IMG/VR virus record: IMGVR_UViG_3300027958_000007
From: a virus
Length of the DNA: 35,263 nt
Direction: 5' to 3' (one strand)
The stretch's first letter is position 1; each line of letters opens with the position of its first letter. Shown piece by piece: positions 7,969 through 35,263 of this stretch. The notes under the pieces are model-generated. The model was not told the DNA's origin. It saw only the letters and a program-made list of their open reading frames with translations, and made no database searches. A program made the translations under genes and the position numbers.

Positions 7969-9033
7969 TTATGCCGTGCGCACCCAACGATGAACGATGA
8001 TAAACGGCTGCAAATTATTATGAGCTGCTCCACTACCCGCGTTTTGGTTTGTAGCTATGGCATTGGATGTCGAATAATTCTGGTCTCCGGTTGTGCTTCT
8101 TGGTTTTGGTTGTGCGCCGGATGAATCAGTATAGTCGCTGTTGTTATAAACTGAATGGGAGTGAGCATTTTGGATGTGGGTATGCACTGGCATTTCCGCC
8201 TCAGTGAGAGTATGCGTTTTTTCTCCGCCAGTTTCGCCCAGCGCATCAAACTCGGTTTGCCCAGCATCAATTGCGACGGTCACTCGGCCTGTCCCATGCG
8301 CTGCCCAAGTTCCGAAACCGAGCAAGGTGTTTGGGTTTGTTGCAACATTAAATTCCCGAATAGTTCCGACTGGGTTCAAATAGCTTCCGATAGCTGCCTT
8401 TAAATTCAGAAACGATAGATATTTCAAGACATAGGATCCAGTGCTATCCAAAAGCGGCAATCGATCATTATCTGCCGGAGTTGTTTTTGCACTGACATTG
8501 TTCATCGTGTTTTCCAAATCCAAAATCATTTGAGTCCGGGTGTCAGTTATTTCAGAGGTAGTGATAGATATTGCTCCGTCAGCCACGGCAATGTTTCCAA
8601 GTCGCATATATGGGTTGGACGCTCCTATCTCACCCTCGATATCATTATCGGTGGGCGCGGTAGGGGACGCGGTCGGCGCGCCCTCGACTACGACAAGTTT
8701 GGCGACATTGCTTATCGTGGCATCCGGTGAGACTGCCAAATCAATATATAAAACAACGGCGTCAATTCTGCCGTTACCGCTTGAATTTGATGAAATTGCC
8801 AGCGTCGTATCGGCGGTTATCCTGACCGGATAAACCATTTCCGCCCCGGCTTTTTGCAAATAAGCATGCCCAAGCGCGATCAAAACTGACATGTTTGGAA
8901 CCGATTGCTGCTCAATATTAAGATCTCCGGCATCTTTACCAACTACGCCCGGAGTCTTGATGAGCTGGTTTGCTGCAAAATTTATGATTTCCTCGGGGTG
9001 TTGAGTTCCGCCCGAGCGCATTGTTTGAAGCAT
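7969..9033 (-). CDS. Tail fiber protein with a C-terminal phage tail-collar (MdpB-like) domain
   Basis: 354 aa. Collar-domain motifs GGEKTHTLTEAEMPVHTH ... GSGAAHNNLQPFIIVHRW. Confidence 0.75.
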   Translation of the reverse strand: MLQTMRSGGTQHPEEIINFAANQLIKTPGVVGKDAGDLNIEQQSVPNMSVLIALGHAYLQKAGAEMVYPVRITADTTLAISSNSSGNGRIDAVVLYIDLAVSPDATISNVAKLVVVEGAPTASPTAPTDNDIEGEIGASNPYMRLGNIAVADGAISITTSEITDTRTQMILDLENTMNNVSAKTTPADNDRLPLLDSTGSYVLKYLSFLNLKAAIGSYLNPVGTIREFNVATNPNTLLGFGTWAAHGTGRVTVAIDAGQTEFDALGETGGEKTHTLTEAEMPVHTHIQNAHSHSVYNNSDYTDSSGAQPKPRSTTGDQNYSTSNAIATNQNAGSGAAHNNLQPFIIVHRWVRTA

Positions 9034-9043
9034 ATTTTTAAAT

Positions 9044-9286
9044 TTACGAAATTATGATGCTTTTTTCTATGTCGTTTTTCATTTTCGATGTGATTTCACT
9101 AAGTGCGGCGGTTTCTGCGTCGTTTTTGGCTTGAATATTAGTTTTTATGATATCTCGCTGTCCATCTCTGAATTTTTTTACCAAAGGATCAATGATCGCA
9201 ATCTTAAAATATACAGCAACGGGCTGTTTATTTTCTGTCATGTATTTTGTCAGCTCGTCCGGGATTTCGATTGTATATTTTGCCAT
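9044..9286 (-). CDS. Hypothetical protein (possibly fiber-associated)
   Basis: 80-aa ORF directly upstream of the collar-domain fiber gene. Confidence 0.45.
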   Translation of the reverse strand: MAKYTIEIPDELTKYMTENKQPVAVYFKIAIIDPLVKKFRDGQRDIIKTNIQAKNDAETAALSEITSKMKNDIEKSIIIS

Positions 9287-9413
9287 AAGGTTATTTTAAA
9301 AATTACTATCTTTAAATTTTTTTATAGCCATTCGCGCCTCTGGCTCAGTGTTAAATCTGCCGATGTGTTTAGTTTTTCCTGCCCCGGGTATTGACACTAA
9401 CCTGCCCATAATC

Positions 9414-9638
9414 TTAATACAAATTTTGCCAAACAGTGCCATCATATATTCTTGCCTTTGATAAAGAGCTATCAAAATATATTTGTCCTCTCTCTGGTAT
9501 TGTTGGGGGTGATACATAAACCGGGATAACCAGTTTGCCTGTGGACGGAAAAGTTAAATTTCGCAATGTTTGACGCTCAAGCATCCCGATCCTGTTTTCA
9601 AATCCTTTCAAAATTTCAATAATATTTTTCTCGTTCAT
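9414..9638 (-). CDS. Small fiber-like protein
   Basis: 74 aa. C-terminal GQIYFDSSLSKARIYDGTVWQNLY resembles tail-fiber repeat motifs. Its start overlaps the Tal stop. Confidence 0.5.
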   Translation of the reverse strand: MNEKNIIEILKGFENRIGMLERQTLRNLTFPSTGKLVIPVYVSPPTIPERGQIYFDSSLSKARIYDGTVWQNLY

Positions 9639-10672
9639 TATATTGGATATGCGGTTAAGTTCACTTTGCCTGATTGATCCAAAGTCCGACGCAAAACCCT
9701 ATAACTTCCGTCGATATTTTCTTGCTCGATTATTATTTTAATTTTATCACCAACTTGGTAATCAGTAAACAAAGGCGAGTCAAAGCGCAAATCAATATTT
9801 ATTGTTTTTCTAGGGAAAGTCCACTTGAGCAAATATTTATCGCCCTTATCTTGTAATGTCGTCGTTTCTTGAATATCTTTTTCGCTAGTAGTTTCTTGCA
9901 ATAGCCCATAAGAATTTTTGTAGGCATTATCAGCGTCGCGGGTGACTGAGACGATATCATCTCCAAAATTTTCTCCAAGCACGACAATTTGATTGACCAT
10001 CCCGAGCAACCCATTTTCGCTGATTTGATATCCGTCAATATTATGCCCATATTCTGCGACCACATTTGCTCGGGTGCTGCCTCTCTCCGGATAAAAAATA
10101 TTAAAGACTTTCCCGGTGTCTATGTCAAAATCAAAACCATTGACAATTTCTTTGTTACTCAGCTTTTCGATTGCCGTCTTGATATTTTCAAAGCGATAGG
10201 TACGGTCTCGGTTGACTGTCGTGGGATCAGTTCCCCGGGTTATCCCCATATCACCATAAGTCAATGCCTGTGTGTAGGAAATTAAGTCCCATGCAATATC
10301 CGACGCATCCGTGGATGAATAAAATTTATATTCTTCGGTGATCCGCTTATCGAGCAACGAGAAAAACCCCTTGCTGTTTATTGAAATTGATCCGCCATCC
10401 TCCTTGCCCGAATTTGTTTGCATCTCATCAATAAACCCGGAATAAAGCAGATTGCCACTGGCATCATATAAATATATTTCACGATATCCCAACTTAAAAA
10501 GATCATAGGGCGTGATTGAAAATTTGTCCAAAACCGACTGTAACATTTGACGGTTAAAAGAAAATTGACCGGTTCGATCGTTGTTTAATTCCTCGGCAAT
10601 TGAAAAATTATCGAAAGGAACCTCCCACTTTTGCGATGCGTCTGCATTTTGAATAATTAAGCTAAAATCCAT
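9638..10672 (-). CDS. Tal-like tail-tip protein (prophage endopeptidase-tail N-terminal type)
   Basis: 344 aa, in the canonical position after Dit. Confidence 0.55.
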   Translation of the reverse strand: MDFSLIIQNADASQKWEVPFDNFSIAEELNNDRTGQFSFNRQMLQSVLDKFSITPYDLFKLGYREIYLYDASGNLLYSGFIDEMQTNSGKEDGGSISINSKGFFSLLDKRITEEYKFYSSTDASDIAWDLISYTQALTYGDMGITRGTDPTTVNRDRTYRFENIKTAIEKLSNKEIVNGFDFDIDTGKVFNIFYPERGSTRANVVAEYGHNIDGYQISENGLLGMVNQIVVLGENFGDDIVSVTRDADNAYKNSYGLLQETTSEKDIQETTTLQDKGDKYLLKWTFPRKTINIDLRFDSPLFTDYQVGDKIKIIIEQENIDGSYRVLRRTLDQSGKVNLTAYPI

Positions 10673-10676
10673 ATTT

Positions 10677-11510
10677 TTATATTCCGAGGTAGCTGTCCCT
10701 ATAAATTATTTCAGTGCGGGCGTCATCATCGTATGTCACTGCCGATGTCCTAATCGAGTTTGCTCCGGGCGCCAGTATCAACCAATCGCCGGAAGCAGCC
10801 CCACGGATATTCGATGTGCCATTAAGCAGCACCGTACGATTATAAACATCGATTTCGATATAGTCTCCATTTGCTAAATCGTAAGTCAAAGATAATGTTT
10901 CCCCTGTAGTTTCATTCGAGATGCTCGGGTTTTCAATTGCCCCATATATTTTGATAATAGGGTAAATATTCGCGTTGCCGGAGTTGGATATTTCCTGCGC
11001 TCCAGCGTCTCCGTTGGCCAAAGACATCGGCATCTCAGCTGGAATTTCAGTCCCTCCGCCTGAAAATGCGGGAATTGATATCGTTTGCTCATTTTGCCCG
11101 ACTAAAAATGGATAAGGCGCCACGAGTTCGATCCGGAAATCTCCACGGGTCAGTCTGCCGGACTGGTATGGCATATCCAAGGCCGTTGAAGCAATTGTCT
11201 CGGCTTGTAATACTAATCCCGCCCGAGTGTTTATTTTAGTGGTCACAAGTCCGCCATCATAATTCAAGGCCGACGACAAAAGGCGCCGTTTTAAATCATA
11301 ATCCTCGGCAGTTGTTCCGAGGATATATCCCTCGATCGTCATAATCCTGCGCCCGAATTTGTGCATGCCTAGTGCGGCACCATGATAATTCCCGCGATTT
11401 TGTATATCAACGCGCACCTCCGGAAAGCCAAAACCACTCAGTCTGGTGAATAAATATCCGCCAACATATTGCCCCAGCAAAAGCCCGTTTATTTCAATTG
11501 ATGCGATCAT
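10677..11510 (-). CDS. Distal tail protein (Dit)
   Basis: Canonical position after TMP. The track ORF is trimmed to the ATG at 11510 (MIASIEINGLLL...), 5 nt after the TMP stop. Confidence 0.65.
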   Translation of the reverse strand: MIASIEINGLLLGQYVGGYLFTRLSGFGFPEVRVDIQNRGNYHGAALGMHKFGRRIMTIEGYILGTTAEDYDLKRRLLSSALNYDGGLVTTKINTRAGLVLQAETIASTALDMPYQSGRLTRGDFRIELVAPYPFLVGQNEQTISIPAFSGGGTEIPAEMPMSLANGDAGAQEISNSGNANIYPIIKIYGAIENPSISNETTGETLSLTYDLANGDYIEIDVYNRTVLLNGTSNIRGAASGDWLILAPGANSIRTSAVTYDDDARTEIIYRDSYLGI

Positions 11511-14084: not shown

Positions 14085-14600
14085 TTAAGCTGCTGAATCT
14101 CCCACGATACCTAGGTAATTTCCATTCGATTTGGTTGTGTCGATCAAAGCCTCAAATTCCACCTCCATAATTCTCTCGTCTTCTACGGTGTAATTTAATT
14201 CAACTTCGCCGGTCACAACTGCCTTGTAAACAACAACATCCTCATCCCGATTTGATGCGTCGTTTACCAATGGATGCAATACCAAAACCGCTGCCTTTGA
14301 CGCGAGTCTTGCGCCTGCGTTACTTCCGAGAGTCACTCGCTTGTCGCCTGACCCTGCTAGCGTTCCAAGTGGCATAACCTTTGCAAGGTTCGCAACCTGA
14401 GTCTCTGCTAGCGGCACCTTGATGGTCATTTTTTCACCAACCAAAGCTTTGTCAACGCAAGTATTGCCATACTGATCAACTACGATATCGGAATATTCCG
14501 GTGCATAGTTTACAGTGCAACCGCCTTTTGTGTGACCCAGCTCAGTGCCGCCAAAGGTGATTTTGCATGCTCCAATTTTCACATTTGCTACATCGCTCAT
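14085..14600 (-). CDS. Major tail (tube) protein
   Basis: 171 aa, directly upstream of the chaperone genes, with beta-rich composition. Confidence 0.65.
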   Translation of the reverse strand: MSDVANVKIGACKITFGGTELGHTKGGCTVNYAPEYSDIVVDQYGNTCVDKALVGEKMTIKVPLAETQVANLAKVMPLGTLAGSGDKRVTLGSNAGARLASKAAVLVLHPLVNDASNRDEDVVVYKAVVTGEVELNYTVEDERIMEVEFEALIDTTKSNGNYLGIVGDSAA

Positions 14601-15040
14601 ATTTTATCACCTCCTTTCTGTTTTAGTCCCATGTGCAATGTTGCGTGGCAACTCCTGCAAAGGACTGCTAGGTTATTTAAACAATCATTTGGCTGTCCTC
14701 CCTTTTCAAGGCAATTTCTCCCAATATTATCTATATGATGTATGCACAAATCTTTACTCCCACCACACTTTTCGCACTTCTTCCCTGCCCGCTCTACCGC
14801 TTTTATGGCGTTCTCCCCATTTCTATACACTTGGTTCCAAGAAATGCCATGAAATTCTTTAAATTTTTTTCGCGACTCTCTTAAATAGACTGCCGCTGGG
14901 TTATTTGACAAAATTATGCTCTCTCTTTTTTTAGCGCTATATTTTCTTTGCCTAGCTGCGCATTTTTTACGCAACTCAATTTTGTTTTTATAATAATACT
15001 CTCTGCATATAGCGTTATGCTCTTTTTTAGTTCTTTTCAT
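14597..15040 (-). CDS. HNH endonuclease
   Basis: 147 aa. CEKCGG...LCIHHID...NNLAVLCRSCHATLH matches the HNH/zinc-finger pattern. 4-nt overlap with the major tail gene. Confidence 0.85.
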   Translation of the reverse strand: MKRTKKEHNAICREYYYKNKIELRKKCAARQRKYSAKKRESIILSNNPAAVYLRESRKKFKEFHGISWNQVYRNGENAIKAVERAGKKCEKCGGSKDLCIHHIDNIGRNCLEKGGQPNDCLNNLAVLCRSCHATLHMGLKQKGGDKI

Positions 15041-15245
15041 AACATTTATCTCTATTTAAAACCAACTCGTCATTATTAGTGAGCTTTTTAATCAAACTCA
15101 CCGGGGTTTTATAACTGATCACATTCATCTCCCCGCACTTACATTTTATCATAATACGCCCGGCATAGATATATTCGAGCGCCAACAGCTTCCGGCAGTT
15201 GGTGCATCTGATCTCTTTCCAAAATTTATCGTCTTTTTTTATCAT
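15027..15245 (-). CDS. Com-like zinc-ribbon protein (Mu Com family pattern)
   Basis: 72 aa. EIRCTNCRKLLALEYIYAGRIMIKCKCGEMNVI parallels Mu Com (IRCKNCNKLL...IEIRCPRCK). 14-nt overlap with the HNH start. Confidence 0.6.
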   Translation of the reverse strand: MIKKDDKFWKEIRCTNCRKLLALEYIYAGRIMIKCKCGEMNVISYKTPVSLIKKLTNNDELVLNRDKCYEKN

Positions 15246-16570: not shown

Positions 16571-18133
16571 TTAGCCCAATTGAAAACTTAGCGAAATTAT
16601 CATACCTTTGGCCTTTGTGGTCTGAACGGCGTCCACATCAATAGCAATCAGGTCGTTGGTGGCCACATCGTCGTGTGTGGTATCAATAACCACCGGAGTT
16701 GTCGCCGTATCAGTTCCTGCCTCGGTACTATCCCAAGTCAATTTTGTACTCAACATATCCACGCTATCAGTTACATTCCTAATCTGTACATCCATCGTTC
16801 CAGTTATTCCCGCGGTTATCGCTCGGCCGTGTACGCCAACCAAATTCATCCCATTCAAAGCCGACGGGACTACAAAGTAGCATTTTCCGTCGCCGGTAGC
16901 CACATCGGTCGCAAAATCAAACACAATCATCTGCACGGTCTTAATCCCGAAGTTAGAACCCGCCAAAGCGTCCGGAGAAATCGCCCGCGCTTCATCCGTT
17001 CCCGTGTTGACTTCGCTTGCGATAGCAATTTCGACAATTCCCTCGACTGTCGTGCTTGCGCTTGGCTCATCTCCGCTATTCGTTCCGCTTGTGTTCCCTA
17101 TAACAACCTTTTCCGCGTCTGTTACATAATTGTCATCCGCGCTAAGTGCCGGGGCAAATGCGGTCGTGTCCTCTGCTGCTGCCGATCCCAATGCTGGCTT
17201 ATTCAAAATTTGAGCATCACCACTGACAGCGTCCCAATCTGCCTGCACATTTACCTCAGCCCCAGCGGCGATGCCATCAAGTTTGTTTTTATCTCCGGCC
17301 ACAAAAGACGCCGCCTCACTTGCTGCAAAAACCGGGTCGGTTTCCGCCGGGATATCCCCAACCGTGATAAATTCCGCATCATTATTCAAATCGCTCAAAT
17401 TATGGCCGTGTGCAACTGCCGCATACACTAAGTCGTGATTGTGATCGATTGCCGCATAGTCCAAGTCATGATTGTGAGCGATTGCGGCGTAAACTAGATC
17501 GTGATTGTGCGCGACAAGCGCGTATTCGGAGTGAGTATGGAATATTTCTGCATAAACCAAATCATGATTATGATCTGATGCCGCTTTTCCCGCTAAAACC
17601 AAGGTCAAATCTTCTTGATCTGCCAATGTTCCCGTAATATTCCCCCATTCTGCGCCGGATATTTTTGTATTGATCAAATCAATTAAATCGGTCTGCTCAT
17701 AAATATCGCCAAGAATATGCCCCCATTCTGTGGATGTAAAGACCTCAAGGAATGTCCGAACCTTGAAAGTAAAATTTATACTAAAAAGATGACGGTTGCT
17801 TTCGTCTTGCCCAAGTTGTGCTGGGAGTCCATTTGCAAAAACTTCCATCACATCAACACCGTCACTTTCCAAAACCAAATCATCACCTTGTCCATGCAAT
17901 AAATCATAAATATCGTTTGCCTTTGCCAACCCGGTCGAAAATACTGCGTCCCGGACTGAGATTTGCACCGCGATATCTTGGAGCGGTAAATATCTGTCTG
18001 GGGTTCCACCAGTCTGCGTGATCATCACGACATTATTCACATTGTCAGGCATCCGGCTAATAAAAATATCAACGGACTTGGTTCCGATGCCTTGATTTTG
18101 CAAATAGGTCGCTATGTTTCTCAGCAATATCAT
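16571..18133 (-). CDS. Fusion of a tail-terminator / minor-capsid-like N-domain to a fiber-like region
   Basis: 520 aa. Residues 1-128 resemble the minor capsid 2 / tail completion family (LQNQGIGTKSVDIFISRMPD). Then come EWGxIxG repeats, six HxH repeats, a KLDGIAAGAEVN fiber motif and a C-terminal beta-rich domain. Confidence 0.6.
   Translation of the reverse strand: MILLRNIATYLQNQGIGTKSVDIFISRMPDNVNNVVMITQTGGTPDRYLPLQDIAVQISVRDAVFSTGLAKANDIYDLLHGQGDDLVLESDGVDVMEVFANGLPAQLGQDESNRHLFSINFTFKVRTFLEVFTSTEWGHILGDIYEQTDLIDLINTKISGAEWGNITGTLADQEDLTLVLAGKAASDHNHDLVYAEIFHTHSEYALVAHNHDLVYAAIAHNHDLDYAAIDHNHDLVYAAVAHGHNLSDLNNDAEFITVGDIPAETDPVFAASEAASFVAGDKNKLDGIAAGAEVNVQADWDAVSGDAQILNKPALGSAAAEDTTAFAPALSADDNYVTDAEKVVIGNTSGTNSGDEPSASTTVEGIVEIAIASEVNTGTDEARAISPDALAGSNFGIKTVQMIVFDFATDVATGDGKCYFVVPSALNGMNLVGVHGRAITAGITGTMDVQIRNVTDSVDMLSTKLTWDSTEAGTDTATTPVVIDTTHDDVATNDLIAIDVDAVQTTKAKGMIISLSFQLG
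17402..17572 (-). repeat. Coding tandem repeat of about 33 bp (11 aa) encoding six HxH motifs
   Basis: DHNHDLVYAEIFHTHSEYALVAHNHDLVYAAIAHNHDLDYAAIDHNHDLVYAAVAHGHN. The repeated gtgattgtg.. units are visible in the DNA. Confidence 0.85.
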
Positions 18134-18872: not shown

Positions 18873-19589
18873 TTATGTTAGCCGACCGATTACAGTCCAC
18901 ATGCCTTTCAAGAGTCCCTTGGCTTCGTTTGATATCGCAACCTTGCCGGATCCAATCATGCCATCTGCAAAAGTTTCGGATAAATCACCGATGCTAAAAC
19001 TCTTTACGCCCTCACTCTGCATTTTCTGCCTTTCGCCTCCGCCATTCGATAAATACAGGACTTGCTCGATAGTTGCATATTTCACCTTTTTATCAATCGC
19101 CTCAACGACAATACATCGGCTGGTCGTATCGACTGCCGGGCTGAAATCTGTCTCGGTTTCAATCTCGCCGGTTGCACTCACAAAGTTTGCCACCTTGTAA
19201 GTGTTCCCCTTTCCGGCACCGTCAATGATGATGATTGCCCCGCCATTGAAATAATCATCCGGCAAAGTCTGCACATCTCGCAAGGCCGATGCGGTGATTT
19301 TTTTGGTGGCCACTGTCTCAACAACCCCATAAAACATTTCTTCATCTTTGGTCGGGTGTTTCAGTGATTGCTCAAGCCGAAAATACATCGCATCATCAAA
19401 CATCGACTTACTTCTAAATCTCAGCGTGTCGATATGTTTTGTGGCTAATTTCAAGATAGCTTCTTTTTGTTCGGTGGTTAGGGCAGTATAATTGGCAACA
19501 TCCTTGCGGTTCGCTAAGTAAGCATCAGCCTCGGCAGCCGTCACATAGCTGTCGGCGAGGGGATGGGTTGGTGTTGTTTCCAATGACAT
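18873..19589 (-). CDS. Head-tail connector (adaptor) protein with a C-terminal extension
   Basis: 238 aa. N-terminal DSYVTAAEADAYLANR...EQKEAILKLATKHID is typical of gp6/DnaT_2-like adaptors. Confidence 0.6.
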   Translation of the reverse strand: MSLETTPTHPLADSYVTAAEADAYLANRKDVANYTALTTEQKEAILKLATKHIDTLRFRSKSMFDDAMYFRLEQSLKHPTKDEEMFYGVVETVATKKITASALRDVQTLPDDYFNGGAIIIIDGAGKGNTYKVANFVSATGEIETETDFSPAVDTTSRCIVVEAIDKKVKYATIEQVLYLSNGGGERQKMQSEGVKSFSIGDLSETFADGMIGSGKVAISNEAKGLLKGMWTVIGRLT

Positions 19590-19609: not shown

Positions 19610-20638
19610 TTAAAATCTGTTTTTTTCTTGTTCGTTGTCGTGATAGCACATTTGCGCGACCAACTCATCAAAGGAATATTCCGACTTCCAATTCAGCTTT
19701 GTTTTCGCTTTGCTAGGATCACCAATCAGCAAGTCAACTTCGGCCGGACGGTAGAACTCTTTATTTATCTTTATTATAATCTTATTTGTGATTTTATCAA
19801 TACCGACTTCCTCCAATCCTGACCCAGCCCAGCCAATTTCCATCCCAAAGTGCGTTGCGGCCTTTTCGACAAATTCCCGGATAGTCCTAGTCTCGCCAGT
19901 CGCGATGACATAATCATCCGGCTGATCTTGTTGCAACATCAGCCACATCGCCATGACATAATCCCGAGCATGCCCCCAATCTCGTTTTGCGTCTAGGTTC
20001 CCCAGCTCCAAAACCTCCTGTTTTCCAGCCTTGATCCTCGCCAGCGCTTTGGTTATTTTACGAGTCACGAAGTTGGTGCCACGATGCGGGCTTTCGTGAT
20101 TAAAAAGGATGCCGCAAGATGCGTGCATGCCATAACTTTCCCGATAGTTCACGGTGATCCAATGGCCGAAAAGCTTGGCGACTCCATACGGTGATCGGGG
20201 ATGAAATGGCGTGGTTTCTTTCTGCGGAATTTCTTGGACTGCACCAAACATCTCGCTGGTTGACGCTTGGTAAAATCTGCATGTCGGCTTGTATTTTCTG
20301 ATAGCATCCAATAATCGCAAAACACCCAAAGCGTTTACATTCGCCGTATATTCCGGAATTTGGAAGCTGGCACCAACATGGCTTTGTGCAGCTAGATTAT
20401 AGACTTCGTCCGGCATAATCTCTCCAATCAATTTGTCAATCAAAGATGTGTCGCCCATTTCCCCATAATGCAATTTTACCGGGGCGCTAAATCTTGCCTC
20501 GGCTTCTTGCAAGCTCTCACCGCTGTTTGATCGGTGGATGCCGTGGACTTCATAGCCCATATTGGCCAGCAATTCGACCAAATAATAAGAGTCCTGCCCA
20601 CCACATCCGGTCACCAACGCTACTTTTCTTTTTTCCAT
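19610..20638 (-). CDS. gmd: GDP-mannose 4,6-dehydratase
   Basis: 342 aa. ALVTGCGGQDSYYL Rossmann motif, SPYGVAKLFGHW (YxxxK), FNHESPHRG and RDWGHARDYV. Confidence 0.9.
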   Translation of the reverse strand: MEKRKVALVTGCGGQDSYYLVELLANMGYEVHGIHRSNSGESLQEAEARFSAPVKLHYGEMGDTSLIDKLIGEIMPDEVYNLAAQSHVGASFQIPEYTANVNALGVLRLLDAIRKYKPTCRFYQASTSEMFGAVQEIPQKETTPFHPRSPYGVAKLFGHWITVNYRESYGMHASCGILFNHESPHRGTNFVTRKITKALARIKAGKQEVLELGNLDAKRDWGHARDYVMAMWLMLQQDQPDDYVIATGETRTIREFVEKAATHFGMEIGWAGSGLEEVGIDKITNKIIIKINKEFYRPAEVDLLIGDPSKAKTKLNWKSEYSFDELVAQMCYHDNEQEKNRF

Positions 20639-20796
20639 TTTATTATTATTTTATTGATTATTGCTTTTGTTGTTTGTAATATTGTGCGACACTTGAAAGC
20701 TGAACAGCAATGATGGTCTCGGTCTTTCAGCTTCCAAAAGTGCGGGTTTCCACAACTTTCTTTTCTCCGGCAATTATTGCAATTATATTTTTTCAT
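20620..20796 (-). CDS. Possible small Cys/His-rich protein (58 aa)
   Basis: MKKYNCNNCRRKESCGNPHFWKLKDRDHHCCSAFKC... It bridges the 144-bp gap between GT2 and gmd and overlaps both neighbours. This is the trimmed version of track ORF 20620..20922. Confidence 0.3.
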   Translation of the reverse strand: MKKYNCNNCRRKESCGNPHFWKLKDRDHHCCSAFKCRTILQTTKAIINKIIIKWKKEK

Positions 20797-21580
20797 TCCA
20801 TTTGATGGCGACAAACTCTTCCGGGTGTTCGCCATAAAAATGTTTAACTCCCTCGGTTGCGCTGGGGTCGTCATCCGTTTGGCTTTCATCCCAAGGCGTA
20901 ATTGCATCGCCGATCTCCTCACCGTTGCGCTGGCTATAAAATTTCAACTTTGCCTTTATCTGATCGGATGGCTTGATACAAGCGTAATGATAATATGGTA
21001 TTTTTGTCACGATGGTCTGCCCGACGCTGGTGATAAGCAAACCATTTGGCAATTCAACTGGGAAATCATGCGCGCCCCACCTTATCCCCGGCAAATTTTT
21101 AAAAAGTCGCACCGGTTCAGTTTCCCAAATTCCACCAAAGCGGACAAAGTCGGAGGTTTTCCAAAAATGGATCGGCTTGACTGTGAAAGCGTTGGCGTTT
21201 GGGTTCGCCTCGGCGCAATCTATCAAGTCTCGCAAATCCTTGTATTTCCATACTTCATCGCCATCAATTGGCAAAATATAATCAACGCCATCCCGGGCGA
21301 TATTTAGCGCAATGTTTTGAACTTCACTTTTTCCGCTAGAAAACCCGAATTGATTAAATAATATTTTGTGGCCAGCGGGATGGTTCTGCATAATTTCCCT
21401 AATTTTTTGGGCAGTTCCATCGATACTAAGCCCATCCGGTGTGCATTGGTGTTCATTGTGTTTGCAACAACTTTCAACGATAGCAATTTTTTCGATTTCC
21501 GGATGCCTGAGTAAAGAACGCAAGCATGCCCCGATAAATATTTCCTCATTCAAAACGCAAAGCGTGACGCCAATTTTCAT
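20783..21580 (-). CDS. Family 2 glycosyltransferase (GT-A fold)
   Basis: 265 aa. N-terminal IGVTLCVLNEE... and the DxD motif ILPIDGDEVW. Confidence 0.8.
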   Translation of the reverse strand: MKIGVTLCVLNEEIFIGACLRSLLRHPEIEKIAIVESCCKHNEHQCTPDGLSIDGTAQKIREIMQNHPAGHKILFNQFGFSSGKSEVQNIALNIARDGVDYILPIDGDEVWKYKDLRDLIDCAEANPNANAFTVKPIHFWKTSDFVRFGGIWETEPVRLFKNLPGIRWGAHDFPVELPNGLLITSVGQTIVTKIPYYHYACIKPSDQIKAKLKFYSQRNGEEIGDAITPWDESQTDDDPSATEGVKHFYGEHPEEFVAIKWNEKI

Positions 21581-21581
21581 T

Positions 21582-22742
21582 CTATTTTTGCATTAAGGAT
21601 TTGATAATATTTGCCACCCCCTGAGCGGTGTATTTTGCTTGCCAGCGTTTTGCATGGCGCGCCAGCTTCATCTCACGAATCATCCGGGTGCCTTGTCCCA
21701 ACTTGAATTTGTTATATTCAGCCCGCATCGCCTTTCGGACGCTTGCGATGGTTGGTTGAAATTGCGTGCCTAAATCAAGGCCAGCAAATTCCACATTGTC
21801 GTATCTCGGCTTTATACCTACGCAATCCAGCCGTTCCATCAAACTTTCATCAAAATATTCGTGCATGCCAGTGTGATCCGGGACAATTATTGGCATGCCG
21901 GTGGCCATGCACTCAAGGGGAGTCAATCCAAAACCTTCACCTCGAGATGGGAAAACAAAGCAATCCGATTTTTGCATCATATCGCGCAATTCATCCAGCG
22001 TGTAAATCTTTTTAATGACTTCTACTTTGGGATATTCTGAAAGCGATGTTGTTTTTTCCACGGTAGTCTTAAAAACTAGGCGCACTGGCTCATCCGCACC
22101 AAACTCATCATCAAATGCGTTTAGTACGATATCCCAGCCTTTACGGTATTTAAAAGCGTCGAAATGCAAGAATGTAAAAATATGATCATCCGGGCGGATC
22201 CTGTCTAATAAATAAAATTTGTCCGGCTCATAGCCAAGTGGGACAACATCACATTCCAAACCAAATTGGTTCTTTAAAATATTGGAGCAAAACCGAGACG
22301 GTACAATCCGGCGATCAGCTTTCGCCCACCACTCACCCCAAAACTCCGGATATTTTGTGGTCTCAAACATCGAAAAGATAATATTTTTTGGTGCCTTTGA
22401 ATAGACGAGTGTGTTTGGCAAATGGTAATTCAAACAAATTTCTTGACCCTCATATTCGTCATTTAAAAAAACACCATGCTTTTCAATATCTTTTTTTAGT
22501 AATAATGCGCTGGCCGAATATCCGTCATAAGCAAACATATTTGATGAGATAAAATGCACATTGATGAAATCCCTCAACCCCTTTTTTTTGGCTTCTAGCG
22601 CTCTTCGTTCCTCTTGCGCTATAAAAATCCTTTCTCTCGAATCAAGCCGCTTATACCCTTTCCGCCTTAACTCAAAGAATTGCGCGATGTTAATGTTTTT
22701 TTTCTCGATGTTTCCGTTGGGAGCTTTCAAGCACATTTCCAT
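21582..22742 (-). CDS. GT1/GT4-type glycosyltransferase (GT-B fold)
   Basis: 386 aa. FVFPSRGEGFGLTPLECMATGMPIIV (EX7E motif). Confidence 0.8.
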   Translation of the reverse strand: MEMCLKAPNGNIEKKNINIAQFFELRRKGYKRLDSRERIFIAQEERRALEAKKKGLRDFINVHFISSNMFAYDGYSASALLLKKDIEKHGVFLNDEYEGQEICLNYHLPNTLVYSKAPKNIIFSMFETTKYPEFWGEWWAKADRRIVPSRFCSNILKNQFGLECDVVPLGYEPDKFYLLDRIRPDDHIFTFLHFDAFKYRKGWDIVLNAFDDEFGADEPVRLVFKTTVEKTTSLSEYPKVEVIKKIYTLDELRDMMQKSDCFVFPSRGEGFGLTPLECMATGMPIIVPDHTGMHEYFDESLMERLDCVGIKPRYDNVEFAGLDLGTQFQPTIASVRKAMRAEYNKFKLGQGTRMIREMKLARHAKRWQAKYTAQGVANIIKSLMQK

Positions 22743-22803: not shown

Positions 22804-22833
22804 AAAAAAGGCACCCACGAGGATGCCTTTTTT
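22804..22833 (-). terminator. Intrinsic terminator downstream of the major capsid gene (probably leaky)
   Basis: GGCA(CC)/(GG)aTGCC stem flanked by A6 and T6. On the minus RNA the stem is followed by UUUUUU, 16 nt after the MCP stop. Confidence 0.65.
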
Positions 22834-22848
22834 ATATTCAATTTTCGA

Positions 22849-23751
22849 CTAGCTCTTCAAAATGACACAAAGGTCATCGCGCATGATCGCTACACCAAAC
22901 AAAGTGTCGAGTGTGATTTGATCAGCTAGGTTGGCAGCATCGTATGAATAAATCACGCGAATTATAATGCCATCCTTTTCAACATATCCAACCTTAACAC
23001 CGGGAGCCATAGGTTTTGCCAAGGCTCGAGTTGCCAACACCATAGCGTTTCTTTGGAAAGCCATGTTGTAAGTTGTTGCTGGGCTGCCATCTTCAACCGG
23101 AAAAATAGACTCCATAGTTCTGAAACCATAGATTTTTCCAAGTTCACCATCTTGCACAACTGCGCTTGATCCATACTTCTCAGTCGAAACAAATACGGCT
23201 TCCTCGACAATGTTATTCACATTTTCCGGAGTAATATACAGATATCTCTCCATTCGAGGTGCGCGACGGGTGGTCAAATCTGCGCGGGCTTGTTTAACTA
23301 GGTCGCCAGTCACCGCAACGCCTTGAGATCCAAGGGTGTGAGTGAAAGTCAACGCTAGGGTAGCCAATGCGGTTTCAATCTGCTCTGCCAAGGCGATCAT
23401 ACCATCTGCAATATACCCATCTTGGATAACTTGCTCACCGGTTGCCAACGTCTTGACGATATCTTCAACAGCAAAGGTAACTTCCCAGTGCTGATCGAGT
23501 GTCACATCGACTGTGGTCGCTGTTGGGTCTTGAACGGTTACTTTGGTATTCTGCAATTTTCTGTTTGCGGTTACTGCACCACGAACAGGAACTTTGATTA
23601 CATCGCCGATTTTTTGGCTGGTATAATCTGCGTCACGCGCTACATTTTTGGCAAGGTGTAGCTCGGCCTCTAAAGCTCCAAGAGCTTTGTTTGCGACAAT
23701 CTCGGGTACAAATGCACCACCCTTTGTCATGCCAATAGTTACTTCCGGCAT
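22849..23751 (-). CDS. Major capsid protein (HK97 fold, P22-coat/gp5-like pattern)
   Basis: 300 aa, directly after the scaffold gene. N-terminal pattern FVPEIVANKALGALEAELHLAKNVARD. Confidence 0.8.
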   Translation of the reverse strand: MPEVTIGMTKGGAFVPEIVANKALGALEAELHLAKNVARDADYTSQKIGDVIKVPVRGAVTANRKLQNTKVTVQDPTATTVDVTLDQHWEVTFAVEDIVKTLATGEQVIQDGYIADGMIALAEQIETALATLALTFTHTLGSQGVAVTGDLVKQARADLTTRRAPRMERYLYITPENVNNIVEEAVFVSTEKYGSSAVVQDGELGKIYGFRTMESIFPVEDGSPATTYNMAFQRNAMVLATRALAKPMAPGVKVGYVEKDGIIIRVIYSYDAANLADQITLDTLFGVAIMRDDLCVILKS

Positions 23752-23789: not shown

Positions 23790-24482
23790 TTATGCTGGGT
23801 CGATATCATCGATGATTTTCCCCTCTTTGTACGCTTGCAAAATTTCTGCCTCATTCGCTTTGAAAAAGTCATGCTTTTGCAATTCTGAACGCTTAAAGGA
23901 TCTCACCGCCGCATTGCCTCCGTCTGGGGCGCCACCTCCACCGGCATTTCCGATATTGGCTGGCGTTGGTGCTGGGCTACCAAATAAATATGCTTTTTCA
24001 GTTTTCAATGCCTCAACGATTACCTTGACACTTGCCGCATCCACATCGCCATTCTCTGACAATTGGATTTTACTCATGTCGGTCAACTTTGTTACAGCGT
24101 CCAAATCGATAGCGCCTAATTTCATGGCCTCAGAAATCAAAGCGTTGGTTTTCACCGATGACTCAAATTTCTGCTTATAGGTCATGGCCTCTTCTTCTTT
24201 CGCTTTGGCCAGTTGTTCAAACTCACCTTTCTTTTTCATGTCAGCTTCTTTGCGGGTCGCTTCCTCAGCTTCACGCGCTGCGTTGGCTGCGGTATGCTCT
24301 CGCACTTTTGCTGCGACTACTTCGTAACTGTCATGGCGGATATATTTCACTCCGTCTTTTTCAATTACACCATCATGCGATGGGGTTGGCGCTGGTGCCG
24401 GTGCTGGCGTTGCCGCTGGCGCCGGAGTTCCGGCCGTTGGTGTTTCTGTCGCTGGTGCTGGTGCTGGGGTGATTTCTGGCAT
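23790..24482 (-). CDS. Capsid scaffolding protein with a Pro/Ala/Thr-rich N-terminus
   Basis: 230 aa. Charged helical core (EAEEATRKEADMKKKGEFEQLAKAKEEE), positioned upstream of MCP. Confidence 0.7.
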   Translation of the reverse strand: MPEITPAPAPATETPTAGTPAPAATPAPAPAPTPSHDGVIEKDGVKYIRHDSYEVVAAKVREHTAANAAREAEEATRKEADMKKKGEFEQLAKAKEEEAMTYKQKFESSVKTNALISEAMKLGAIDLDAVTKLTDMSKIQLSENGDVDAASVKVIVEALKTEKAYLFGSPAPTPANIGNAGGGGAPDGGNAAVRSFKRSELQKHDFFKANEAEILQAYKEGKIIDDIDPA

Positions 24483-24538
24483 ATTGTTTTTGGTTTAAAA
24501 GTTATATCGGATTTTTTCGCAACCCGCTTCGTGCCTAA

Positions 24539-24566
24539 ATTATAACACTATTTTTTTTTGACGCAA
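24539..24566 (-). promoter_or_regulatory. Sigma70-type promoter with an extended -10, upstream of scaffold/MCP
   Basis: Minus strand: TTGCGT (24566-24561), 16-nt spacer, TGT-TATAAT (-10 at 24544-24539), about 57 nt before the ATG at 24482. Confidence 0.6.
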
Positions 24567-24590
24567 ATAAAAAAATAAATTTTGTCAATA

Positions 24591-24628
24591 ACTTTTTTGG
24601 AAAAACTTTTTTGGAAAAACTTTTTGAG
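24591..24628. repeat. 14-bp tandem repeat ACTTTTTTGGAAAA, 2.7 copies
   Basis: Exact copies at 24591-24604 and 24605-24618, with a partial copy at 24619-24628. Confidence 0.9.
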
Positions 24629-24636
24629 TTGTGAGC

Positions 24637-24693
24637 GGGTAGGGACGGGGTGGGTCGCACGCGTAAGGGTGGGGGCTAGGGGTGGGGACAGGG
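24637..24693 (+). other. Two tandem canonical G-quadruplex motifs. The complementary strand is a C-rich, G-poor tract on the minus-strand RNA.
   Basis: Motif 1: GGGtaGGGacGGGGtGGG (24637-24654). Motif 2: GGGtGGGGGctaGGGGtGGGGacaGGG (24667-24693). Confidence 0.8.
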
Positions 24694-33107: not shown

Positions 33108-33818
33108 TTATTTTTTAGCCATCAATCGTCCAATAGGGACTACCGCATCGGGGTTAAGTGTAAATTCTGTAATGGTGAAATTTTTGTTTGCCAATAAGTC
33201 TCGCAACTTTTCCGCCCAGCCAAAATCAATGTGCCACTCCATCACAATTTTATCAATTTTAGCCCATTGCTCATCCGTGAAGCTTGCTAGGATGTGATAT
33301 TCGCTGCCCTCGCAATCAACCTTTAAAAAATCAATTTTATCCACATTCTCGAATATTGCTTCGGCTGGCCATGTTTCAATTTTCTCAACATTTTCACCAA
33401 ATGGATTTTCGCTTACCGAATAGCCTCCGGTGTTTAGTTGGCCTGTTGCCCCGTGATCAATAAAATACTCTCCTGCGGTTCCGGTGAGCGCTTTATTATA
33501 TAGCCGTATTCCACCCCGATCTTTTGCGTTCGCTCGCGTATTCATTTCGAGCAAATCAAAATTATCCTTGTCCGGCTCATACGCGTTTACGTCTGCCCCC
33601 TGCATTATCGCCCACACCATGAATGATCCGATGTGCGCACCAATATCGACGACAACATCGCCCGGTTTGATCTCATACCCGGCACCGGAATAAAAATGTT
33701 GGTTCCAAATTTCCTGCACGATATTCGGGTCATGGGTTCCGGGTCTGACATTAAAGTCCGCTCTGATTTCTTGTCCGCTAAATAATTTGTCAACGGCTGT
33801 AAAAATTTCTGTTTGCAT
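33108..33818 (-). CDS. FkbM-family SAM-dependent methyltransferase
   Basis: 236 aa. VVDIGAHIGSFMVWAIMQGADVNAYEPDKDNFDLLEMN and DFLKVDCEGSEYHIL are typical of Methyltransf_21. Confidence 0.8.
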   Translation of the reverse strand: MQTEIFTAVDKLFSGQEIRADFNVRPGTHDPNIVQEIWNQHFYSGAGYEIKPGDVVVDIGAHIGSFMVWAIMQGADVNAYEPDKDNFDLLEMNTRANAKDRGGIRLYNKALTGTAGEYFIDHGATGQLNTGGYSVSENPFGENVEKIETWPAEAIFENVDKIDFLKVDCEGSEYHILASFTDEQWAKIDKIVMEWHIDFGWAEKLRDLLANKNFTITEFTLNPDAVVPIGRLMAKK

Positions 33819-34869: not shown

Positions 34870-35205
34870 TTATTCGGATTGGGTTATCGGCGAATTAAAA
34901 AGCTCGCCCTGTTTTTTTGGGGCGCCAATTTCGGCTATGATCACGGTCTGCAAATAATCCGGCAAACTATCAAAAAAATCCGGCAACGCCTCAGCCCTAA
35001 ATCTGAAAAGCGTGTCTTCACCCGTTTCGCGGACTTCAATCATCTGCGGGAATAGGGCTGAGGCTTCTAAAATTAAGCGCTGTGCCTCGATAAGGGTTTC
35101 AATGCCCATTGATGTGTCTGAGAGTAAATCAATCGTCCTGCGCCATTGTGAGCGGTCTGGCTGACGGAGGAAAGCTTTTAATATTTTTTGATGGGTTGTT
35201 TGCAT
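34870..35205 (-). CDS. Hypothetical protein
   Basis: 111-aa ORF. Its start lies within the terminal repeat, equivalent to position 69. Confidence 0.5.
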   Translation of the reverse strand: MQTTHQKILKAFLRQPDRSQWRRTIDLLSDTSMGIETLIEAQRLILEASALFPQMIEVRETGEDTLFRFRAEALPDFFDSLPDYLQTVIIAEIGAPKKQGELFNSPITQSE

Positions 35206-35263
35206 TGATTTGTTTTGATTATTGGCAGATATTATGGGCTAAAACGATGATGGTGCTTGCTAC
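35137..35263. repeat. Terminal direct repeat, copy 2 (assembly overlap)
   Basis: Identical to 1-127. The start codon of ORF 34870..35205 lies inside the repeat. Confidence 0.95.

Follow-up and report, generated by a model that had tools for sequence, protein, structure and literature searches.

A glycosyltransferase gene linked to the major capsid gene and a predicted virion glycosylation cassette in uncultured siphophages

The Glycan Cassette and Its Products

The virus record IMGVR_UViG_3300027958_000007 of IMG/VR, analysed over its entire length of 35,263 nt (the window), contains a cassette of sugar-metabolism genes positioned between the genes for the major capsid protein and a head-tail adaptor, and comprised of a GT4-family glycosyltransferase (GT), a GT2-family glycosyltransferase, a small Cys-rich open reading frame (ORF), and a GDP-mannose 4,6-dehydratase (GMD). 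An exact 127-nt direct repeat at the two termini (positions 1-127 and 35137-35263) indicates that the window is a complete circular genome of 35,136 bp, in which the minus strand carries all of the genes. An earlier reading made without database searches (the sequence-only reading) had placed three sugar genes between the capsid and head-tail connector genes, sharing strand and operon with both neighbors. The ORFs were found there on the minus strand, with scaffold and capsid upstream and adaptor, neck, and tail genes downstream on the same strand. The cassette and its two flanking genes are as follows.

22849..23751, minus strand: major capsid protein, 300 aa, P22-coat-like with an HK97 fold (PF11651, E = 1.3e-16; PHROG_283 major head protein, E = 1e-36)
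21582..22742, minus strand: GT4-family (GT-B, retaining) glycosyltransferase, 386 aa, assigned from Pfam, an AlphaFold2 (AF2) model, and an invariant EX7E motif
20783..21580, minus strand: GT2-family (GT-A, inverting) glycosyltransferase, 265 aa, assigned from PF00535, a DGD motif, and an AF2 model
20620..20796, minus strand: Cys-rich ORF, 58 aa, with the pattern CxxC...C...HxC, its frame and Cys/His pattern conserved in the related loci L004 and L090/L011
19610..20638, minus strand: GMD (EC 4.2.1.47), 342 aa, assigned from PF16363 and GMD structures in the PDB
18873..19589, minus strand: head-tail adaptor Ad1 (PHROG_477, E = 9e-13), the downstream edge of a variable island

The 386-aa GT4 matches both PF00534 Glycos_transf_1 (52 bits, cut-off 26.4) and PF13692 Glyco_trans_1_4 (53 bits, cut-off 27). 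It had previously been labeled a GT1; the assignment as a glycosyltransferase holds, but the label does not, GT1 deriving from the Pfam name and GT4 being the CAZy family. The C-terminal domain contains an E-x7-E motif (E269-GFGLTPL-E277) in which both glutamates are invariant among 70 homologues, and the N terminus forms a family-specific module of ~57 aa. The AF2 model, built with the 70-sequence alignment, has a canonical GT-B architecture of two Rossmann domains with a predicted local distance difference test score (pLDDT) of 94.2 and a predicted template modeling score of 0.85. Foldseek returned 419 PDB matches to the model at E <= 1e-3, the nearest being the retaining GT4 structures of chlorovirus NY-2A (PDB code 3oy2), MshA, SenB, PimA, WaaG, and BshA, where the similarity to 3oy2 (14% identity, template modeling (TM) score 0.65) is that of GT-B enzymes in general. 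No case was found of a GT4 fused to a structural protein.

The GT2 gene begins 1 nt past the GT4 stop codon and its product matches PF00535 Glycos_transf_2 over residues 7-149 with a modest margin (33.2 bits, cut-off 23.3), whereas a PHROGs search gave no match. Only six homologues were found, all within the sub-lineage of the window, and among these the DxD motif (D106-G-D108) is invariant. The AF2 model has a GT-A fold (pLDDT 74.7), with the peptide S-glycosyltransferases SunS and ThuS (PDB codes 7msn and 7msk) as its top Foldseek neighbors, at a TM-score of only 0.50 and 14-18% identity, followed by RmlT, K4CP, TarS, WrtF, and SpsA.

The GMD covers all of PF16363 GDP_Man_Dehyd (1-332 of 332 positions, E = 2e-138) and has Aquifex GMD as its best PDB match (2z1m, E = 1e-128), with eleven PDB GMDs matched at E <= 1e-103. 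The catalytic residues are kept in the segments STSEMFG (STSE) and PYGVAK (PYxxxK), and the NADP motif at residues 12-19 reads TGCGGQDS instead of the canonical TGxxGxxG. The third glycine of this motif is Ser, Ala, or Cys in the phage clade (TGxxGQD[S/A/C]), and TGxxGQDG occurs in 110 of 120 GMD homologues, including all of the more distant, largely cellular ones. Judged from this assignment, the product would be GDP-4-keto-6-deoxy-D-mannose, from which GDP-fucose, -rhamnose, -perosamine, and -colitose are made; the genome does not encode a reductase or epimerase to act alongside GMD. The enzyme shares 77-92% identity with GMDs from contigs of phage size. Its closest cellular counterparts are just 60-65% identical and spread over many phyla, so that a donor lineage cannot be named.

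The 58-aa ORF fills what appears to be a 144-nt gap between GT2 and GMD, with a 14-nt overlap at the stop of GT2 and one of 19 nt at the start of GMD. It is found directly upstream of GMD in L004 and L090/L011, is absent from the other GMD-bearing relatives, and has no Pfam match. Searches with PADLOC gave no defense-system match for this ORF or for GT4, GT2, and GMD.

One further enzyme of possible relevance is encoded outside the cassette, 11 kb away.

33108..33818, minus strand: FkbM-type (Methyltransf_21) methyltransferase, 236 aa (PF05050, E = 8.6e-12), upstream of the terminase region

A homologue of this methyltransferase (E = 1e-22) lies inside the capsid-adaptor interval of the related locus L140, and the FkbM enzyme of the window may therefore be a displaced glycan O-methyltransferase with a putative link to the cassette. 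GT4, GT2, GMD, and the FkbM methyltransferase all lack a hydrophobic segment (maximum 19-residue Kyte-Doolittle value <= 1.46), and no flippase, polymerase, Gtr, or Wzx/Wzy component was detected in the genome with Pfam. From their sequences, GT4, GT2, and GMD look active, soluble, and cytoplasmic.

Collectively, hidden Markov model (HMM), PDB, and AF2/Foldseek searches uphold the three enzyme identities of the sequence-only reading. That reading had also considered a recent host-derived insertion with dead catalytic motifs. The motifs are intact, both the G+C content of the cassette and that of its third codon positions (GC3) fall within 1 standard deviation of the remaining genes, and no cellular GMD is closer than the 60-65% given above, which excludes such an origin.

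GT4 Is the Conserved Partner of the Capsid Gene

When 5.8 billion proteins were queried, the GT4 yielded 464 homologues, many of them on contigs of 28-42 kb, and in the contigs examined at 72, 44, 37, and 32% GT4 identity the GT4 gene always lies directly 3' of a capsid gene. Alignments of the capsid protein and of GT4 were then used to scan IMG/VR, and 152 loci were analysed with custom HMMs. The capsid-anchored set comprised 65 non-redundant capsid genes, 59 of which had enough downstream sequence; GT4 is located within 400 nt of the capsid gene in 49 of these 59 and within 1.5 kb in three more, giving a total of 88%, a figure that is somewhat biased upward because the relatives were retrieved with patterns from GT4-positive phages. 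When the capsid- and GT4-anchored sets were combined, GT4 was adjacent to the capsid gene in 83 of 99 loci and further downstream in 8, with a median capsid-GT4 gap of 90 nt across all loci with an adjacent GT4. The seven capsid-anchored relatives that are missing GT4 belong to a GT4-negative group of about three clades, in which no GT was found among the post-capsid genes, most of these having no Pfam family.

The same arrangement was observed in GTDB (185,579 genomes), where nine true members of the GT4 family were identified, each with a capsid gene directly upstream (9/9). Eight of the nine are on contigs of <= 42.5 kb, the length of a phage genome or less, that were binned into assorted metagenome-assembled genomes (MAGs). 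The ninth, L158, is a capsid and GT4 pair at 8835-11050 of DASPLQ010000012.1, a 1.41-Mb contig of a Vitreimonas sp. MAG, and its presence in a megabase alphaproteobacterial contig indicates that at least one distant member of the family is probably temperate. This contig is the only chromosomal host link found. The remaining GTDB matches are generic GT4s with identities of <= 32%. Distant matches to the GT4 domain also occur within huge ORFs of ~1,000-4,400 aa (L162, L163, L166, L167, L171, L192, and others) from Bacillota, Poribacteria, Verrucomicrobiota, and Ignavibacteriae genomes.

Pairwise identities of the capsid protein and GT4 co-vary (Mantel r = 0.77, with none of 999 permutations as high), including among pairs with capsid identities below 60% (Spearman 0.67). 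Taken together, the synteny and co-divergence reveal that GT4 is part of the head module, is inherited vertically, and is not a moron. Gene order had been proposed as a check on whether the cassette behaves as a moron insertion, and for GT4 this was not borne out: it is present in 88% of relatives, diverges with the capsid protein, has a normal composition, and, like the rest of the cassette, is preceded by a terminator. The view of the three genes as a single cassette must likewise be revised, with GT4 belonging to the core of the head module and GT2, the small ORF, and GMD being add-ons of one sub-clade, sporadic among relatives and ameliorated in composition.

The lineage is entirely uncultured and consists of siphophages. 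In protein searches no isolate exceeded 25% identity for GT4 or about 26% for the capsid protein. A GT match in the Streptomyces phage Karimac (gp43) is irrelevant, lying beside ribonucleotide reductase and endolysin genes rather than a capsid gene. Hundreds of metagenomic contigs represent the lineage, some binned with Patescibacteria, Omnitrophota, and Proteobacteria MAGs, and the bin assignments contradict one another (four Patescibacteria-lineage bins, Omnitrophota, Aquaspirillum, Bacteroidales, and Vitreimonas).

The Capsid-Adaptor Interval Is a Variable Island

The interval between the capsid and adaptor genes, measured in 25 loci with the same adaptor family as the window, ranges from 1.2 to 10.9 kb and holds from 0 to about 9 genes in addition to GT4. 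Gene content within this interval turns over rapidly. Close relatives differ: L004, with a capsid protein 82% identical to that of the window, has the same set of genes including GT2 and GMD; L090 (86% identical) has GT4, the small ORF, and GMD without GT2; and L006 (43% identical) has GT4 only. GT4 is also the sole gene between capsid and adaptor in L092, L094, and L095, which suggests that it can act on its own. At the other extreme, the capsid genes of L003, L008, and L009 are followed by extended series of GT4, GT2, and methyltransferase genes together with a cytidylyltransferase gene.

Family assignments were made for 89 island ORFs, with the plain anchor GT4s excluded. Among those with a recognizable family, glycan-related genes dominate, with 15 GT-B, 10 GT2, 3 GMD, and 2 PAPS-reductase-like members, and with methyltransferases of the Methyltransf_24 (6), FkbM (4), and rhamnosyl-O-methyltransferase/CmcI (RMNT_CmcI; 2) types; the few unrelated genes interspersed in the islands of relatives encode lysin-like CHAP and GH25 proteins and HNH proteins. 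In several phages, the anchor GT4 is part of a fusion protein of ~1000 aa, either GT4-GT2 or GT4-GT4-GT2, and by the Rosetta-stone argument these fusions place GT4 and GT2 in a common pathway. An iterative GT2 HMM drew in all of the GT4s by way of the fusions and was discarded; the GT2 counts consequently derive from single-sequence matches. The rapid turnover of the island implies that related phages would display different glycans, in the manner of a virion serotype locus.

Putative Promoter, Terminator, and Predicted Expression of the Cassette

Three features upstream of the cassette are relevant to its expression.

24539..24566, minus strand: putative sigma-70-like promoter, TTGCGT-N16-TGTTATAAT, with an extended -10, ~55 nt upstream of the scaffold gene
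23790..24482, minus strand: scaffolding protein, 230 aa (PF06810, E = 4.6e-14; PHROG head scaffolding)
22804..22836, minus strand: intrinsic terminator or attenuator (A-tract, hairpin, T6), starting 13 nt past the capsid stop codon

The TTGCGT-N16-TGTTATAAT element, a putative promoter as judged from its sequence, is kept in the window, L004, and L090, even though the surrounding ORF-poor region is divergent. That region (24483-25266, minus strand) consists of 784 nt upstream of the scaffold gene without a minus-strand ORF of at least 50 aa. Two further elements within it are common to L004 and L090, namely a leader hairpin (24526-24508) and, at 24821-24775, a block of 47 nt that contains a GGCT...AGCC hairpin.

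A terminator after the capsid gene had been proposed by the sequence-only reading and is confirmed. The hairpin GGCATCC-tcgt-GGGTGCC followed by T6 (22827-22804) has a 7-bp G+C-rich stem and a tcgt loop, and the 110-nt region between the capsid gene and GT4 folds with -24 kcal/mol (z = -4.96), which none of 200 shuffled sequences equaled. A simple consensus scan overlooked this terminator, which was found by hairpin and folding analysis. Of 82 relatives, 58 have a hairpin with a T-run between the capsid gene and GT4, with differing stem sequences. No promoter of its own was detected for the cassette.

With the promoter before the scaffold gene and the terminator after the capsid gene, scaffold and capsid would constitute a high-expression unit, and the cassette, along with all of the neck and tail genes, would be reached by read-through. 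The prior suggestion that the cassette is expressed below the capsid gene thus agrees with the promoter-terminator bracket, from which the ratio of scaffold and capsid expression to cassette expression is predicted.

A Predicted Virion Glycosylation System

The cassette is interpreted here as a phage-encoded, cytoplasmic late system for the glycosylation of a virion protein, with the major capsid protein as the most probable target, and we consider the chance that this is correct to be about even. In the proposed mechanism, the promoter and the leaky terminator would make scaffold and capsid proteins abundant, with read-through providing catalytic amounts of the enzymes. GT4 would be the priming enzyme, transferring the first sugar from a nucleotide sugar onto the acceptor, a role proposed because it is the only component conserved throughout the lineage and has a family-specific N-terminal module. 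In the sub-clade of the window, GT2 would add a further sugar, while GMD and the small Cys-rich protein would divert host GDP-mannose toward a GDP-6-deoxyhexose donor. The GMD product would still need a reductase, as none is encoded in the genome, and completion of the 4-keto intermediate could fall to a host reductase or to GMD itself, if it has a second activity. More speculatively, the FkbM methyltransferase encoded elsewhere may O-methylate the glycan.

Several observations support this interpretation. The genes lie between capsid and adaptor, share their strand, are separated by 1 nt or overlap, and follow a conserved attenuator; GT4 behaves as a core gene of the head module; and the island is rich in glycan genes, of a kind with those in the experimentally proven cassette of mycobacteriophage Che8. 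The models provide weaker structural hints, with a chlorovirus GT as the best PDB neighbor of GT4 and with SunS and ThuS, which glycosylate peptides, as those of GT2. The sequence-only reading had ranked virion glycosylation above seroconversion of a lysogen surface. This ranking stands, given the lack of an integrase, the soluble enzymes, the late operon, and the co-divergence of GT4 and capsid protein; the glycan itself is a prediction.

A number of points weigh against virion glycosylation. The glycan on a virion protein is a prediction, and the major capsid protein is a candidate acceptor in which no Ser/Thr column separates 86 GT4-positive from 8 GT4-negative sequences, a contrast that is statistically weak because the GT4-negative phages amount to about three clades. 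The capsid protein is also without a C-terminal extension, the reported glycan site in mycobacteriophages. GT4, GT2, and GMD are enzymes that bacteria routinely use to make O-antigen, capsule, and teichoic acid, and most characterized GT4 enzymes act on lipids or sugars. The structural neighbors of both GTs are generic (TM-scores 0.5-0.65), no similarity to the GTs of mycobacteriophage Che8 was detected, and GMD by itself yields no finished donor sugar. Finally, synteny and co-divergence demonstrate membership of the head module and not the substrate, and the proportion of relatives with GT4 is somewhat inflated by the way in which they were retrieved.

A broader proposal concerns the uncultured siphophages of ~35-42 kb as a whole, namely that GT4 and the capsid gene have been passed on together ever since the lineage arose and that GT4 is followed by a hypervariable island, each capsid thereby being differently glycosylated. 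This is put forward tentatively, as possible but rather less secure than virion glycosylation in the window.

Alternative Explanations

The strongest alternative, although an unlikely one, is that the enzymes remodel a host envelope glycan during infection, such as lipopolysaccharide (LPS)/O-antigen, capsule, teichoic acid, or S-layer glycan, in order to block superinfection, to keep progeny phages from binding to debris, or to seroconvert the host in the case of temperate relatives. GT4, GT2, and GMD are typical surface-polysaccharide genes whose structural neighbors include WaaG, PimA, TarS, RmlT, and WrtF, and TarP is an example of a soluble phage GT that modifies wall teichoic acid. The island also turns over rapidly, as O-antigen loci do, and one distant member lies in the 1.4-Mb Vitreimonas contig, probably as a prophage. 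The window is nonetheless a complete genome without an integrase, and its sugar genes follow the capsid terminator within a late structural operon; no promoter of their own was detected, nor was a membrane, flippase, or Gtr component. Moreover, GT4 is fixed beside the capsid gene and co-diverges with it, which is not expected of a gene that tracks the host surface, and several relatives keep GT4 without any other sugar gene.

Somewhat less probable again is a target other than the capsid among the phage proteins, the candidates being the Pro/Thr-rich N terminus of the scaffold, the tail tube or Ig-domain protein, and the fiber-like extension of the tail terminator. Capsid and tail-tube subunits of mycobacteriophages are both reported as modified (PMC11256854, PMC11600133, PMC12363180), which favors a wider choice of targets, as does the failure to find an acceptor motif in the capsid protein. 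Residues 4-35 of the scaffold are rich in Pro, Thr, and Ala (93% P/T/S/A over 30 residues), and the scaffold N termini of L004 and L090, which belong to the GMD-bearing clade, are similarly rich, unlike those of most relatives. However, just 4 of 83 GT4-positive loci have such termini, as does one GT4-negative locus, and scaffolds normally exit the head. It is the capsid gene, furthermore, that is the conserved neighbor of GT4, whereas the tail module varies, with the adaptor family present in only 35 loci. The scaffold N terminus resembles O-glycosylated linkers and does not correlate with the presence of GT4; as an acceptor it was set aside as uninformative, being limited to the sub-clade of the window and also found in a GT4-negative phage.

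The capsid-adaptor junction might instead be a permissive hot-spot for auxiliary metabolic genes or morons that tune host nucleotide sugars or exopolysaccharide, an explanation that is improbable. It would account for the differing sets of genes (GT4, GT2, and GMD in the window, GT4 and GMD in L090, GT4 only in L006), for the unrelated CHAP, GH25, and HNH genes in the same interval of relatives, and for GMD, which is a known auxiliary gene in cyanophages. It fits poorly with GT4, which, far from being sporadic, occurs in 88% of relatives and diverges together with the capsid protein, and with a cassette whose GC and GC3 match the rest of the genome. Glycan-related genes also prevail among the family-assigned ORFs of the interval, and the GT4-GT2 fusions argue for a single pathway with a single substrate.

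Glycosylation of phage DNA (base hypermodification) for evasion of restriction is highly improbable, since, although T-even and other phages have GT-B and GT-A enzymes that add sugars to hydroxymethylated bases, the complete genome encodes no hydroxymethylase, TET/5mYOX, or other base-modifying pathway, the only DNA-modifying enzyme found being a Dam-like N6-adenine methyltransferase, the genes have a late, structural position and timing, and we know of no case in which GDP-6-deoxyhexoses serve as donors for DNA modification.

Comparison with Known Glycosylation Systems

The closest functional counterparts of the predicted system are found in mycobacteriophages, where virion glycosylation has been described for Che8 (gp108-110), Corndog (gp38 and its neighbors), and Myrna (Freeman et al. 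2023, Cell Host Microbe 31:1216, as cited in PMC11256854, PMC11600133, PMC12363180). According to papers citing that work, phage GTs and an O-methyltransferase modify capsid and tail-tube subunits and blunt antibody recognition, and the systems occur in lytic and temperate siphophages with gene sets that differ by cluster. The window lineage is similar in having phage-encoded soluble GTs, in the proposed virion targets, and in gene sets that vary between phage groups. O-methyltransferases are present within the islands of relatives, and the FkbM enzyme of the window lies 11 kb from its cassette. The Methyltransf_24-type methyltransferase and GT2 modules of Che8 gp108, a GT2 and Methyltransf_24/TylF fusion, are also present in cassettes of the window lineage, whereas gp109 is GT2-like and gp110 belongs to GT25. 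The Che8 set is thus one of GT2, GT25, and methyltransferase enzymes without GT4, and the window cassette adds a nucleotide-sugar enzyme (GMD). Mycobacteriophages had also been cited as a precedent for GTs in a structural operon. This does not hold for Che8, in which the GT genes, of different families, lie near the right end of the genome and far from the capsid gene, as opposed to the window with its putative priming GT directly after the capsid gene. A tblastn search of 50,697 phage records (INPHARED) with GT4 and GT2 gave no match to a Mycobacterium phage, and pairwise BLASTP comparisons of the two proteins with the Che8 enzymes gave E values of 0.03 or worse. Consequently, the window system appears to be analogous to those of Che8 and Corndog, not homologous with them, and may work alike; glycosylation is proven in Che8 and predicted in the window.

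Chloroviruses such as PBCV-1 encode their own GTs and a GMD and glycosylate their capsid protein independently of the host secretory machinery. The combination of virus-encoded GTs with a GMD is shared with the window, and the best PDB neighbor of the window GT4, 3oy2, is from chlorovirus NY-2A. The chloroviruses are, however, giant viruses of eukaryotes with a double-jelly-roll capsid and scattered genes, and PBCV-1 encodes a second enzyme of the fucose pathway that is absent here.

Temperate phages change surface glycans with GT2-type enzymes, as in O-antigen glucosylation by GtrABC and the modification of Staphylococcus aureus wall teichoic acid by the prophage enzyme TarP. These systems need lysogeny, the Gtr type also requires the membrane proteins GtrA (the flippase), GtrB, and GtrC, and their genes are located near att or immunity regions and expressed from the prophage. 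The window shares a phage-borne GT2-type enzyme with these systems, but it has no integrase and no membrane protein, and its cassette is part of a late operon. That seroconversion is a poor fit, as had been suggested, is therefore consistent with the lack of an integrase, the lack of Gtr membrane families in Pfam searches, and the low hydropathy (<= 1.46) of the enzymes.

Glycosylation of polypeptides in the cytoplasm by soluble GT4 enzymes that use nucleotide sugars is exemplified by GtfA/GtfB of serine-rich-repeat adhesins. For the GT2 family, SunS and ThuS, which are glycocin S-glycosyltransferases, are the top structural neighbors of the window GT2, although the latter lacks a TPR or peptide-binding domain of the SunS type; this model-based similarity is best regarded as a lead and not as a test. 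A nucleotide search of the 50,697 phage records yielded matches only for GMD, in cyanophages (~66% over 495 nt). Cyanomyoviruses such as Synechococcus phage ACG-2014f resemble the window in carrying GMD; they differ in being 200-kb myoviruses with another genomic context, and the match reflects the general conservation of the enzyme.

Implications

To our knowledge, covalent glycosylation of tailed-phage virions, which alters antibody recognition, has been demonstrated only in a few mycobacteriophages. If the interpretation offered here is correct, many environmental phages would glycosylate their virions, and the trait would have more than one origin. Under the broader proposal it would be ancient and widespread, extend beyond the phages of Actinobacteria, have evolved independently of the Che8 and Corndog enzymes, and be under diversifying selection. 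The non-animal settings would then point to a role other than antibody escape, candidates being evasion of host defenses that recognize surfaces, adhesion to or repulsion from matrices, and particle stability. The island would then be a fast-evolving phage glycan "serotype" locus comparable with bacterial O-antigen loci, and many of the "glycosyltransferase/cell-wall biosynthesis" auxiliary metabolic genes of viromics would be genes of structural modules. In the simplest relatives, a capsid gene and one 386-aa enzyme would suffice, and so compact a system might serve as a tool for the glyco-engineering of phage or HK97-fold capsids.

Genome Organization and Minor Observations

The same genome was found in one Joint Genome Institute and one European Nucleotide Archive metagenome, on contigs of 35,244 and 35,277 bp. 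Its late region is ordered terminase, portal, gp7-like protein, scaffold, capsid, cassette, Ad1 adaptor, neck, tail, and replication module; Ad1 is followed by neck proteins, a tail terminator with a fiber-like domain, tail genes, tape measure, Dit, and Tal. Neither an integrase nor a repressor was found among the ORFs of at least 90 aa, in agreement with the earlier statement that no integrase or lysogeny module is visible. The Vitreimonas member would, by its contig, be a probable prophage. No Rfam family matched anywhere in the window. The genes at the head of the late region are listed below.

30917-29343, minus strand: terminase large subunit
29312-27867, minus strand: SPP1-type portal
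27864-26140, minus strand: gp7-like minor head protein

In the tail terminator (gene at 16571-18133, minus strand), the domain proper (PF12691, residues 10-125) is fused to a fiber-like extension of ~390 aa with HNHDLxYA repeats and matches to tail-collar-fiber PHROGs; the orthologues in L004 and L006 have just 129-135 aa. At 14597-15245 (minus strand) the tail module is interrupted by genes for an HNH endonuclease (147 aa) and a zinc-ribbon-like product (72 aa), which lie between the genes for a 316-aa protein and an Ig-domain protein. The Ig-domain protein (14085-14600) is probably the major tail protein. Its gene is preceded by AAAGGAGGTG and is an exception in the window, where a Shine-Dalgarno sequence is nearly absent upstream of the genes and the leaders are A/T-rich. 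Such leaders would suggest a Bacteroidota host, whereas the conserved TTGnnn-N16-TGnTATAAT promoter is unlike those of Bacteroidota. Additional small CxxC ORFs are located at 25452-25806.

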